Part shown: positions 27,999-34,772 of the stretch, in pieces | Numbering within the stretch: the stretch's first letter is position 1 | How the letters are laid out: every line of letters begins with the position of its first letter | NCBI RefSeq assembly: GCF_044324875.1 | Contig: NZ_CP172185.1 | DNA: 64,000 bases | Strand: one strand, 5' to 3' | Source: Escherichia coli | GTDB taxonomy: Bacteria > Pseudomonadota > Gammaproteobacteria > Enterobacterales > Enterobacteriaceae | Program-made: the position numbers and the translations under genes | Notes under the pieces: model-generated | Told to the model about the DNA's origin: nothing | What the model saw: only the letters and a program-made list of their open reading frames with translations | Database searches by the model: none

Positions 27999-28003
27999 GC
28001 CAG

Positions 28004-28088
28004 TGCCGGATACGGCGTAAACGCCTTATCCGGCCGACAAATGCGCTCCCCGTAGGTCGGATAAGACGCGTCAGCGTCGCATCCGACA
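28004..28088. repeat. REP/BIME inside the phn operon (phnK-phnL spacer)
   Basis: gccggatacggcgtaaacgccttatccggcc … gtcggataagacgcgtcagcgtcgcatccgac. Confidence 0.6.
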
Positions 28089-28108
28089 CCCGAACCACGA
28101 GGCGAAAA

Positions 28109-30901: not shown

Positions 30902-31660
30902 ATGAGCCTGACCCTCACACTTACTGGCACTGGCGGCGCACAGGGCGTTCCCGCATGGGGCTGTGAGTGCGCGGCCTGCGCCAGAGCGCGGCGCTCACCG
31001 CAGTATCGCCGCCAGCCATGCAGCGGCGTCGTGAAGTTTAACGACGCGATCACCCTGATCGACGCCGGGCTGCACGATCTCGCCGATCGCTGGTCGCCCG
31101 GATCGTTCCAGCAGTTTTTGCTGACGCACTACCATATGGATCACGTGCAGGGGCTGTTTCCGCTGCGCTGGGGCGTGGGCGATTCGATCCCGGTCTACGG
31201 CCCGCCGGATGAACAGGGCTGCGACGATCTGTTTAAACATCCGGGCCTGCTTGATTTCAGCCACACGGTGGAACCGTTTGTAGTGTTTGATTTGCAGGGA
31301 TTACAGGTCACGCCGCTGCCGCTCAATCATTCGAAACTCACTTTCGGCTATTTACTGGAAACGGCACATAGCCGGGTGGCGTGGCTGTCTGACACCGCAG
31401 GCCTGCCGGAAAAAACGCTGAAATTTTTACGCAATAATCAGCCACAGGTAATGGTGATTGATTGCAGCCACCCACCGCGCGAGGATGCACCGCGTAATCA
31501 CTGTGATTTAAATACCGTGCTTGCGCTGAATCAGGTTATCCGCTCGCCACGGGTGATTCTGACCCATATCAGCCACCAGTTTGATGCGTGGCTGATGGAA
31601 AACGCACTGCCGTCGGGGTTTGAGGCGGGGTTTGATGGGATGGAGATTGGGGTGGCGTGA
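30902..31660 (+). CDS. phnP: Metallo-beta-lactamase-fold phosphodiesterase
   Basis: 252 aa; HYHMDH metal-binding motif. Confidence 0.9.
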
Positions 31661-31682
31661 TGGGAGGGAATGTGCGCGCTGG

Positions 31683-31797
31683 CCCCCTCACCCTAACCCT
31701 CTCCCCAGAGGGGCGAGGGGACCGATTGTGCTCGATATTGAATATTGCGCTGGTTTTCTCCCTCGCCCCATTGGGGAGAGGGCCGGGGTGAGAGGCG
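31683..31797. repeat. GC-rich composite inverted repeat (boxC-like) between convergent phnP and yjdP
   Basis: Arm A ccccctcaccctaaccctctccccagaggggcgagggga (31683-31721) and arm B tctccctcgccccattggggagagggccggggtgagagg (31757-31797) are near reverse complements, separated by about 35 bp containing a short AT palindrome. Confidence 0.5.
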
Positions 31798-31818
31798 ATG
31801 CCTGCTCCATACCCAACA

Positions 31819-32148
31819 TCAACGCCCATACTCATCTTCCATTCTCCGCTCTTCATCTTCTAGCTGCCGACGCTCCTGATCCAGCTGGCGCTGGCGATCG
31901 TCCAGCTGCCTGCGGCGATCTTCAAACTGGCGGCGGCGATCGTCATATTGTCTGCGCCGATCGTCGTTCACTTCACGCTGCCAGCCGTCGTCGCGCGAAT
32001 CTTCATAGTCTCGCCCACGGTCAGGGTTATAAGCGTCGTTAATCGCCTGCTGAATATTGCCAATGGTGTCGTCGATAATATCGGCCTGGGCCGGAACGGT
32101 GGACAGCGTGAGCAGGGTGAATAAAAGAAATAGCGGAAAGCGTTTCAT
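31819..32148 (-). CDS. yjdP: Small secreted protein YjdP with periodic acidic/basic repeats
   Basis: 109 aa; N-terminal signal peptide MKRFPLFLLFTLLTLSTVPAQA followed by repeats of the DDRRRQ type; degenerate 24-bp DNA periodicity visible. Confidence 0.8.
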   Translation of the reverse strand: MKRFPLFLLFTLLTLSTVPAQADIIDDTIGNIQQAINDAYNPDRGRDYEDSRDDGWQREVNDDRRRQYDDRRRQFEDRRRQLDDRQRQLDQERRQLEDEERRMEDEYGR

Positions 32149-32216: not shown

Positions 32217-32534
32217 TCAATTTCTCCGCTGCTCTATTGCCGTAATCGCCTCCACGCGTTGTTGATGACGACCGCCTTCGTACTGCGCGCCCAGCCACGC
32301 ATCCACAATCATTTTTGCCAGTTCGAGGCCAACCACTCGTGAACCAAAAGCCAGTGCAACTTCACTGGCGTAATGCGGATAATCAGTACGCTCTGACGAC
32401 CTGGTTTCTTTATCAATCCCCTCACTCATTGACCATGAATAAAAGGCTGGCACAGCAACGCAGAATCCTGCGGTGCCAGCGACATGACCGCCCATTGCTC
32501 CGGTACGTTTTTTAATAAAAAACACCGGTTGCAT
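32217..32534 (-). pseudogene. rpiB: Truncated ribose-5-phosphate isomerase B remnant
   Basis: C-terminal ~46 residues (AFGSRVVGLELAKMIVDAWLGAQYEGGRHQQRVEAITAIEQRRN) and the SSERTDYPHYAS segment match RpiB as I recall it, but the central catalytic region (ICGTGVG… block) is missing and the N-terminal 40 residues are not recognisable. Confidence 0.6.
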
Positions 32535-32786
32535 TGATTAATTGTGCTCAGTATTTGCCGAAGTACAATATATATAATAAATATATAAAACACCTCATAT
32601 TATTTACAGAGATAATAAATTCGCGTACTTTTCCCTCTTCAGCACAAATGCCTAATAAAATGGCTCGCTCCGCTCACACTTCCACTTATTAAAGTCGCAA
32701 ATTCCCAATTATGATAACGCCAGCTTTAAATGACGTATTTTGCATGGATTACATATTTACGACACAAATGATAAATGGAGATTTAT

Positions 32787-34772
32787 ATGAATAACTCTCG
32801 GTTATTCCGTTTGAGCAGGATTGTTATTGCGTTAACTGCCGCCAGCGGCATGATGGTAAATACCGCTTACGCAACAGATGAAGCGAAAGCCGCCACTCAA
32901 TATACCCAACAGGTTAATCAGAATTACGCCAAATCATTACCGTTTAGCGATCGTCAGGATTTTGACGATGCCCAGCGTGGATTTATCGCCCCGCTGCTGG
33001 ATGAAGGTATTCTGCGTGATGCGAACGGTAAAGTTTACTACCGCGCAGACGATTACAAATTTGATATTAATGCCGCTGCGCCGGAAACCGTAAACCCCAG
33101 CCTGTGGCGTCAGTCGCAAATCAACGGTATTTCTGGCCTGTTCAAAGTCACCGATAAAATGTATCAGGTGCGCGGCCAGGATATCTCTAACATTACGTTC
33201 GTTGAGGGCGAGAAAGGCATTATTGTTATCGACCCGCTGGTGACGCCGCCTGCCGCAAAAGCCGCACTTGATCTTTACTTCCAGCATCGTCCGCAAAAAC
33301 CGATTGTTGCTGTGATTTACACCCACAGCCACGCCGACCATTATGGCGGTGTGAAAGGCATTATCTCTGAAGCGGATGTTAAATCCGGCAAAGTGCAGGT
33401 GATCGCTCCGGCAGGCTTTATGGACGAAGCCATCAGCGAAAACGTGCTGGCGGGTAACATCATGAGCCGCCGTGCGCTCTACTCTTACGGTCTGTTACTG
33501 CCGCACAACGCGCAAGGCAACGTGGGCAACGGCCTGGGCGTGACGCTGGCAACCGGCGACCCGAGCATTATTGCACCGACTAAAACTATCGTCAGAACTG
33601 GCGAGAAGATGATTATCGACGGCCTGGAATTTGACTTCCTGATGACTCCGGGTAGCGAAGCGCCAGCCGAAATGCACTTCTATATTCCGGCCCTGAAAGC
33701 CCTGTGTACCGCCGAGAACGCCACGCATACCCTGCACAACTTCTACACTCTGCGCGGCGCGAAAACCCGCGATACCAGCAAGTGGACCGAGTACCTGAAC
33801 GAAACGCTGGATATGTGGGGTAACGACGCGGAAGTACTGTTTATGCCGCACACCTGGCCGGTCTGGGGCAATAAGCATATCAATGATTATATTGGTAAAT
33901 ATCGCGATACTATCAAGTACATTCACGACCAGACCCTGCACCTGGCGAACCAGGGCTACACCATGAATGAAATCGGCGACATGATTAAGCTGCCGCCTGC
34001 GCTTGCCAATAACTGGGCCAGCCGCGGCTATTACGGTTCTGTCAGCCACAACGCCCGCGCGGTGTATAACTTCTATCTTGGCTATTACGACGGTAACCCG
34101 GCTAACCTACATCCGTATGGTCAGGTGGAGATGGGTAAACGTTACGTGAAAGCGCTGGGCGGTTCTGCCCGCGTCATCAACCTGGCGCAAGAAGCGAACA
34201 AGCAAGGTGATTACCGTTGGTCGGCAGAACTGCTGAAACAGGTGATTGCCGCCAACCCTGGTGACCAGGTCGCGAAGAATCTGCAAGCGAATAACTTTGA
34301 ACAGCTGGGCTATCAGGCCGAGTCCGCCACCTGGCGCGGTTTCTACCTGACCGGCGCGAAAGAGCTGCGCGAAGGGGTGCATAAATTCAACCACGGCACC
34401 ACCGGTTCCCCGGACACCCTTCGCGGAATGTCGGTCGAAATGCTGTTCGACTTTATGTCCGTTCGCCTCGATAGTGCGAAAGCCGCGGGTAAAAATATCA
34501 GCCTGAACTTCAATATGAGCAACGGCGATAACCTCAACCTGACGCTGAACGATAGCGTGCTTAACTACCGTAAAACGCTGCAACCGCAAGCCGACGCCTC
34601 TTTCTACATCAGCCGTGAAGATCTGCATGCCGTGCTGACCGGACAAGTCAAAATAGTGGATCTGGTAAAAGCGAAGAAAGCCAAAATTATTGGCAATGGC
34701 GCGAAACTGGAAGAAATTATTGCCTGTCTGGATAATTTCGATTTGTGGGTGAATATCGTAACCCCAAATTAA
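32787..34772 (+). CDS. yjcS: MBL-fold alkyl/aryl sulfatase (SdsA1-like)
   Basis: 661 aa; signal peptide, THSHADH zinc motif, SCP2-like C-terminus; start set at second ATG (MNNSRLFRL…). Confidence 0.9.

Follow-up and report, generated by a model that had tools for sequence, protein, structure and literature searches.

The element analysed here lies in a stretch of 64,000 nucleotides of Escherichia coli DNA, referred to below as the window, and fills the gap between phnP and yjdP (Table 1). The gap (31661–31818) comprises the whole 158 nt between the stop codons of the two genes, and the element proper spans 31672–31808. It begins 11 nt beyond the phnP stop codon (TGA, 31658–31660) and ends about 10 nt from that of yjdP. 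The gene assignments were made from the list of open reading frames together with annotated E. coli records of more than 99% identity, and they bear out the convergent arrangement of phnP and yjdP that had been given in an earlier note on this DNA.

The surroundings on the yjdP side have features of their own. Within yjdP, direct repeats with a period of 21/42 nt (ATCTTCTAGCTGCCGACG and relatives; 31855–31935) encode the DDRRRQL repeats of the YjdP protein. In strain 14EC017 yjdP is a pseudogene with an internal stop, and in strain AVS0151 its annotation is longer. Beside yjdP is a 105-codon RpiB-like open reading frame (32217–32534, − strand), which is followed directly by yjcS (32775–34772, + strand). 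The same arrangement of the RpiB-like frame and yjcS is present in strain CFSAN061763, while in K-12 the position is occupied by full-length rpiB and alsR. Judged from this gene order, the lineage of the window appears to have lost part of the rpiB–als region.

Table 1. Genes and repeat-unit components at the phnP–yjdP locus, with positions in the window
Feature	Position	Strand	Sequence	Remarks
phnP	30902–31660	+		Last gene of the phn operon; from the list of open reading frames and the annotation of near-identical E. coli records
3' flank of type-A unit	31672–31683	−	GCCAGCGCGCAC	Common to BoxC units of both types; from the alignment of 11 E. coli units
Type-A core (left arm), 36 nt	31684–31719	−	CCCTCGCCCC-TCT-GGGGAGAGGG-TTA-GGGTGAGGGG	Type 'A mm'; TTA second loop
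Type-A-specific 5' flank	31720–31740	−	CAATATCGAGCACAATCGGTC	Also on other type-A units, including the solo unit at yjgR–lptG
Type-B-specific 5' flank	31739–31759	+	TGAATATTGCGCTGGTTTTCT	T-rich run ahead of the C block; abuts the type-A 5' flank
Type-B core (right arm), 36 nt	31760–31795	+	CCCTCGCCCC-ATT-GGGGAGAGGG-CCG-GGGTGAGAGG	CCG second loop
Degenerate 3' flank of type-B unit	31796–31808	+	CGATGCCTGCTCC	Pairs partly with 31672–31683 in the predicted fold
yjdP	31819–32148	−		DDRRRQL repeat protein; from the list of open reading frames and the annotation of near-identical E. coli records

A repeat search of the window placed the arms of the inverted repeat at 31684–31719 and 31760–31795, each of 36 nt and 40 nt apart. 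These positions agree with the inverted repeat of about 115 bp that had been described from the sequence beforehand (arms at 31683–31721 and 31757–31797), although its description as near-perfect was slightly generous, as the complementarity of the arms is 83% (30 of 36 positions). Each arm had also been described as an imperfect palindrome, and this is borne out by the analysis: the left arm contains an inverted repeat of its own (13 nt, 85%), and in DNA folding both arms singly form hairpins of 9–10 bp with one mismatch each. The folding energies of the single arms are unexceptional compared with shuffled sequences (z of −0.5 to −1.8). When the 158 nt gap is folded as RNA, a single long hairpin is predicted on both strands (−93.2 and −89.7 kcal/mol, z of about −7.5), with a stem of some 30 bp or more and a loop region of 40 nt, and none of 200 shuffles was equally stable. 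As single-stranded DNA the gap gives −39.8 and −38.6 kcal/mol (z of about −5). The ViennaRNA folding models hairpins only.

The arms belong to a single family of repeats that has been given several names. It was first described as BoxC (Bergler, 1992; Bachellier, 1999), later as PIT (the name used by Hoyne & Maher, 2000, 2002, as cited by Holder et al., 2015) and then as TMECO, with types A and B (Holder et al., 2015; PMC4666352); HPG1 and HPG2 are further names (Kaplan et al., 2016; PMC5100583). The consensus of the TMECO core is CCCTCNCCC-N3-6-GGGNGAGGG-N3-GGGNGAGGG (PMC4666352). The left arm (31685–31719, − strand) matches this consensus exactly, with no match in 100 shuffles of the window, and it is letter for letter the same as entry No. 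22 in Table 1 of the TMECO catalogue, which is of type 'A mm' and is located at 4,314,285–4,314,320 in MG1655 (PMC4666352). In NC_000913.3, phnP is at 4,314,344–4,315,102 and yjdP is at 4,313,868–4,314,197; entry No. 22 adjoins phnP there and is therefore the K-12 orthologue of the left arm. The same K-12 site appears as HPGQ 51 in a second catalogue, in the gap that separates yjdP and phnP and at a distance of 24 nt from the latter (PMC5100583). The K-12 locus aligns base for base with the window except for a deletion of 12 nt.

The right arm (+ strand) matches the consensus when the last block is relaxed, the difference being a single G-to-A change in the last G block. The type-B unit of strain CFSAN061763 is without this change and is an exact match to the consensus. 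A query specific to the complete type-B arm found the G-to-A change in none of the complete genomes, the best identity being 98.5%. Each of the five pairs catalogued in K-12 joins one unit of type A to one of type B, the two being on opposite strands (Holder et al., 2015; PMC4666352). The window obeys this rule, with TTA in the left arm, CCG in the right arm and the two arms on opposite strands. The element agrees with the BoxC/PIT/TMECO family on every feature that could be tested, and comparison with the published boxC consensus, which the earlier note had proposed as a check, leaves the left arm identical to it and the right arm one base away.

The anatomy of a unit was determined from an alignment of 11 units with their flanks, taken from six E. 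coli loci. In this alignment the conserved stretch extends past the 36 nt core: type-A units have a common 5' flank ending in ...GAGCTCGATCGGTC, type-B units have a common 5' flank ending in ...GCGCTGGTTTTCT, and the two types have one 3' flank in common, CCAGCGCGCAC. The subtype-specific 5' flanks and the common 3' flank recur on units at five other loci. A T-rich stretch ahead of HPG2 motifs, comparable to that in the type-B 5' flank, has also been described by Kaplan et al. (2016; PMC5100583). The length of the repeat unit as seen here is roughly 60–70 nt, and conservation past the core fits the length of about 56 bp (51–59 bp) given for BoxC in the published annotation. In the window the two 5' flanks meet at about 31739/31740 and make up the 40 nt between the arms. 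The element therefore consists of two complete units that abut head to head, with no separate spacer. The 40 nt stretch was also considered as an independently conserved sequence, the body of a miniature inverted-repeat transposable element (MITE), and was rejected as such, since it is made of 5' flanks that solo units also bear.

Of the 5426 complete E. coli genomes, 5425 contain matches to the 158 nt query; a genome has a median of 17 such places and at most 31, and nearly all are chromosomal (40 of 81,250 places are on plasmids). The suggestion in the earlier note that the element is a copy of a dispersed, boxC-like repeat is in this way confirmed, both by the identity of the two arms and by the many further copies, a search for which it had proposed. 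The motif has also been published as being without plasmid or phage association (PMC4666352), and the copies reported in the literature for K-12 number 23 (TMECO) and 32–33 (BoxC). Repeat and consensus searches found no other copy within the 64 kb of the window, as expected at roughly one place per 290 kb. The other copies that were fetched are likewise intergenic. Similar dyads occur at phnK–phnL (strain ST2747), at a hypothetical gene beside a glycosyltransferase gene (strain CB7286), at hrpB–mrcB and at lldD–trmL. In the window the phnK–phnL gap (27999–28108) contains a pair of REP-type palindromes (GCCGGATACGGCGTAAACGCCTTATCCGGCC...), whereas in ST2747 it contains a two-unit BoxC dyad instead (type B on the − strand, type A on the + strand); two unrelated repeat families occupy one intergenic slot in different strains.

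The distribution of the family outside E. coli was assessed by a consensus scan of one genome per species. The matches listed include scores from Mitsuaria chitosanitabida, with others from a Methylomirabilota metagenome-assembled genome and from Contendobacter. Within these listed matches, 28 of the 34 close pairs in the distant bacteria have the −+ orientation of the window, and the first loop is nearly fixed (GCTTGC) while the second is variable. The spacers of the Mitsuaria pairs, again among the matches listed, are not conserved, and they are often tandem-repetitive or contain partial units. The organisation in these distant bacteria is mosaic and recalls the BIME clusters formed by REP sequences. 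The 3610 copies reported in 262 genomes (Holder et al., 2015; PMC4666352) accord with so wide a distribution.

The phnP–yjdP locus was located in 5239 genomes with a query composed of the gap and 300 bp of each gene, and it falls into several length classes, with gap alleles of 158 nt (the window), 146 nt (K-12), 95 nt, 76 nt (O157:H7), 42 nt, 34 nt and 27 nt. The intact dyad is rare: the query specific to the complete type-B arm found it in 63 of 5426 genomes (1.2%), and about 99% of strains have lost all or part of the structure by deletion. Rough shares of the alleles, from an evenly spaced sample of the locus matches, are about 56% for the K-12 type, about 8% for the O157 type, about 15% for the 42 nt and 34 nt types and about 17% for the 27 nt type. 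Some 60% of genomes retain an intact type-A unit at the site, and given this proportion there may be some selection for one unit here; the larger deletions, down to the 27 nt gap without structure, account for about 40%. In the K-12 allele GGGGAGAGGGCC is deleted, which is one G block of the type-B unit, and the catalogues therefore list a single unit at this site.

Five deletions are unambiguous, and microhomology is present at the bounds of all five: four are flanked by exact repeats of 3–9 nt (GGGG, GAGGG, GAGGGGCGA and GGG), and the deletion that gave the 42 nt allele is flanked by an imperfect 6 nt repeat. The 27 nt allele is too diverged for its breakpoints to be placed and still ends in a BoxC-like 3' flank. 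No clean empty site was found among the short alleles at phnP–yjdP, each of which contains remnants of BoxC; from their sequences, all of the alleles look like decay products of a dyad. The predicted RNA stability falls along the series from −92 (z of −7) through −64, −56 and −26 to −5 kcal/mol (z of +0.7). The same decay has been described at 'palindromic' TMECO sites, and strain-to-strain variation at TMECO loci exceeds that at control loci (Holder et al., 2015; PMC4666352). The dyad is a genetically unstable structure, from which deletions between short, G-rich direct repeats remove segments. In the 27 nt allele (strains A22 and AVS0151) the deletion enters the last codons of phnP (31650–31660 in the window), and the C-terminus of PhnP and its stop codon are altered compared with the window (...GAGGTGGAGTGA in the allele, ...GGGGTGGCGTGA in the window).

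The match of both arms to the consensus and the flanks identify the element as a dyad of a type-A (− strand) and a type-B (+ strand) BoxC unit arranged head to head, and the allele series makes it very probable that this unstable dyad is a dispensable by-product repeat. The long stem-loop is the mere result of two repeat copies facing in opposite directions and not a device built for this locus, and the structure is not conserved at phnP–yjdP. The dyad would be a selectively near-neutral dispersed repeat that can be dispensed with, and it may be tolerated here because the gap between two convergent 3' ends holds no promoter. The transcripts of both phnP and yjdP would have to enter the element, and their 3' ends would fold into a very stable hairpin that lacks a U tract. 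Such a hairpin would not by itself be expected to terminate RNA polymerase but could block 3' exonucleases as REPs do. During replication, slippage over the hairpin would be the most likely source of the deletions. The site itself is already known, as the family has been described since 1992 and the exact intergenic site is in two K-12 catalogues; the local particulars are only the rare allele with an intact dyad and a private point change.

Several other functions could be envisaged for such a structure. The earlier note had proposed a bidirectional terminator, and an intrinsic terminator that stops RNA polymerase coming from phnP and from yjdP would be in keeping with the position between convergent genes and with the very stable stem on both strands; termination has been speculated for six HPG1 motifs between convergent genes (Kaplan et al., 2016; PMC5100583). 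We nevertheless regard this function as very unlikely. A promoter and terminator scan of 31661–31818 found no site on either strand of the element, its two terminator-like matches being inside yjdP and at chance level, and no T/U run follows the stem, after which the sequence is CGATGCCTGC on the + strand and GCCAGCGCGC on the − strand. PIT elements are reported to act neither as promoters nor as terminators and to leave RNA polymerase unaffected in vivo (Hoyne & Maher, 2002, in the account given by Holder et al.; PMC4666352), although these results may not carry over to the intact dyad with its −92 kcal/mol. Little or no structure remains at this site in about 40% of genomes, the dyad being intact in 1.2%, and most members of the family are located between tandem genes (PMC5100583). 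A literature search on functional follow-ups and on yjdP returned no transcript or termination data for the locus. A gene product is still less credible, whether it be the small structured RNA that had been suggested beforehand or one of the 44-codon open reading frames that cross the repeat (31657–31791, + strand; 31688–31822, − strand; peptides such as ...PLTLTLSPEGRGD...). Reading frames on both strands and the strong fold would be compatible with it, but the Rfam matches are all below threshold and are to eukaryotic miRNA hairpin models (15–29 bits compared with cut-offs of 40–168; the best at a permissive E-value was 28.8 bits against a cut-off of 100, for a plant miRNA hairpin model), there is no promoter-like site in the element, and the reading frames are eliminated by natural frame-shifting deletions, 82, 116, 124 and 131 nt long. 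The 44-codon frames were rejected as genes, being an expected artefact of a repeat composed of G and C blocks, and could be mis-annotated by gene callers as hypothetical proteins. A REP-like role in stabilizing mRNA 3' ends, in line with the RNA stability element that the earlier note had also suggested, is possible but rather doubtful; in it polymerase would read through, exonucleases would trim the transcript back to the hairpin and the phnP and yjdP mRNAs would be protected. Both stop codons are within about 11 nt of the element; no other terminator is located between them and the element, which must therefore be part of both 3' UTRs. The stem is very stable, and hairpins of REP sequences are established barriers to exonucleases. 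Against this, the stabilities of the natural alleles extend from −92 to −5 kcal/mol and give no hint of constraint, and an effect of this kind, if it exists, is more likely to be a side effect than the reason for the presence of the element.

The remaining possibilities concern the DNA itself and the dyad as a module. According to published hypotheses, a single-stranded unit might adopt a non-B structure, either an intrastrand purine-motif triplex or one state of a G-quadruplex/hairpin switch, causing polymerase stalling and local instability or serving as a regulatory switch; we consider such a role conceivable, if somewhat unlikely. By CD and NMR, triplexes form in vitro in oligonucleotides of type A mm, to which the left arm belongs, and the variability of TMECO loci relative to control loci noted above would fit (PMC4666352), as would the G-quadruplex/hairpin switch observed by CD (PMC5100583) and the rich series of deletions at phnP–yjdP. 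However, in vivo DMS footprinting gave no support to a stable triplex and the duplex forms when the complementary strand is present (PMC4666352), the G-to-A change in the window weakens the third block of the type-B unit, and the deletions, being microhomologous and spanning the hairpin, can be accounted for by ordinary inverted-repeat slippage without a triplex. It is improbable that the dyad is a non-autonomous mobile element resembling a MITE, whose terminal inverted repeats would be the G-rich cores that face outward. Similarly built dyads at unrelated loci (phnK–phnL in ST2747, the locus in CB7286, lldD–trmL), a phnK–phnL slot that is filled in one strain and not in others, and the predominance of the −+ orientation among the matches listed for Mitsuaria would suit such an element. 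The solo units, however, bear the same flanks, which makes the unit and not the dyad the repeat, and the spacers of the Mitsuaria pairs are not conserved. The dyad does have inverted ends, but the alternative allele at phnK–phnL is a REP pair and not an empty site, and at phnP–yjdP there is no clean empty site, as the short alleles all look like deletion remnants. We know of no target-site duplication and no partner transposase for BoxC. Plasmids and phages show no association with the family (40 of 81,250 places are on plasmids), and four of the five published K-12 pairs are in the opposite (+−) orientation (PMC4666352).

The exceptional degree to which the core is conserved, both inside E. 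coli and between phyla, is the strongest argument against pure neutrality, with which it is hard to reconcile, and it hints at an unrecognized constraint such as a binding protein or a mobilizing enzyme. In a further reading, the head-to-head A/B dyad, and not the single unit, would be a functional module, either bound by a protein (a mobilizing enzyme or a structure-specific binder) or acting as a two-way barrier at RNA 3' ends that insulates the convergent genes. The occurrence of the same −+ orientation in E. coli and, predominantly among the matches listed, in the betaproteobacterium Mitsuaria can be cited in its favour, but we give this reading little credence. If it were true, the alleles from 158 to 27 nt would lead to heritable differences in the expression of the tail of the phn operon and of yjdP. 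Under the preferred interpretation of the element as a dispensable BoxC dyad, its weight as a discovery is small and its main worth is for annotators, who should label the region as a BoxC dyad, disregard the 44-codon reading frames and the miRNA-like Rfam matches, and assume no terminator. The locus also provides a clean natural series of decay alleles that can be used to test the effect of the hairpin on both convergent transcripts.

Comparison with known systems places the element with BoxC and sets it apart from others. Like an intrinsic terminator it is a GC-rich stem-loop between convergent genes, but it has no U tract downstream or A tract upstream and its stem is far larger than that of terminator hairpins. 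The ERIC/IRU and Correia MITEs resemble it in a length of about 140 bp, inverted-repeat ends, a long RNA hairpin and an intergenic location; the difference is that the element is composed of two independent repeat units that also occur singly, and MITE status is unlikely. An indirect comparison is with the RSA repeats of E. coli, six copies of a uniform 150/151 bp, which are annotated separately from BoxC, whereas the BoxC pairs of K-12 have spacers of 16 to 59 nt. The similarity to REP/BIME (PU) sequences is the broadest, as these too are short, GC-rich imperfect palindromes that are confined to intergenic regions, tend to cluster with alternating orientation, are transcribed as part of 3' UTRs and differ between strains. 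The sequences are nonetheless unrelated, and a direct reading shows no resemblance to the REP pair of the window at about 27999–28108, in line with the earlier impression that the element is not a standard REP. A REP is a simple hairpin, whereas a BoxC unit is made up of a C block and two G blocks, and a family of mobilizing enzymes (RAYT) and binding proteins are known for REP and neither is known for BoxC. REP, the intrinsic terminator and the Rfam RNA families are each excluded by a defining feature that is lacking. With the BoxC/PIT/TMECO/HPG family the element shares an exact left arm and a right arm with one mismatch, the TTA and CCG second loops and the inverted pairing of A and B, as well as an intergenic, dispersed, multi-copy occurrence, common flanks and an orthologous K-12 site that is in both catalogues. 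It differs from the K-12 pairs in orientation, four of those five being tail to tail and the window being head to head (−+), and from the K-12 catalogue site in that 12 nt of the type-B partner have been lost there, so that one unit is counted, while the window keeps both.
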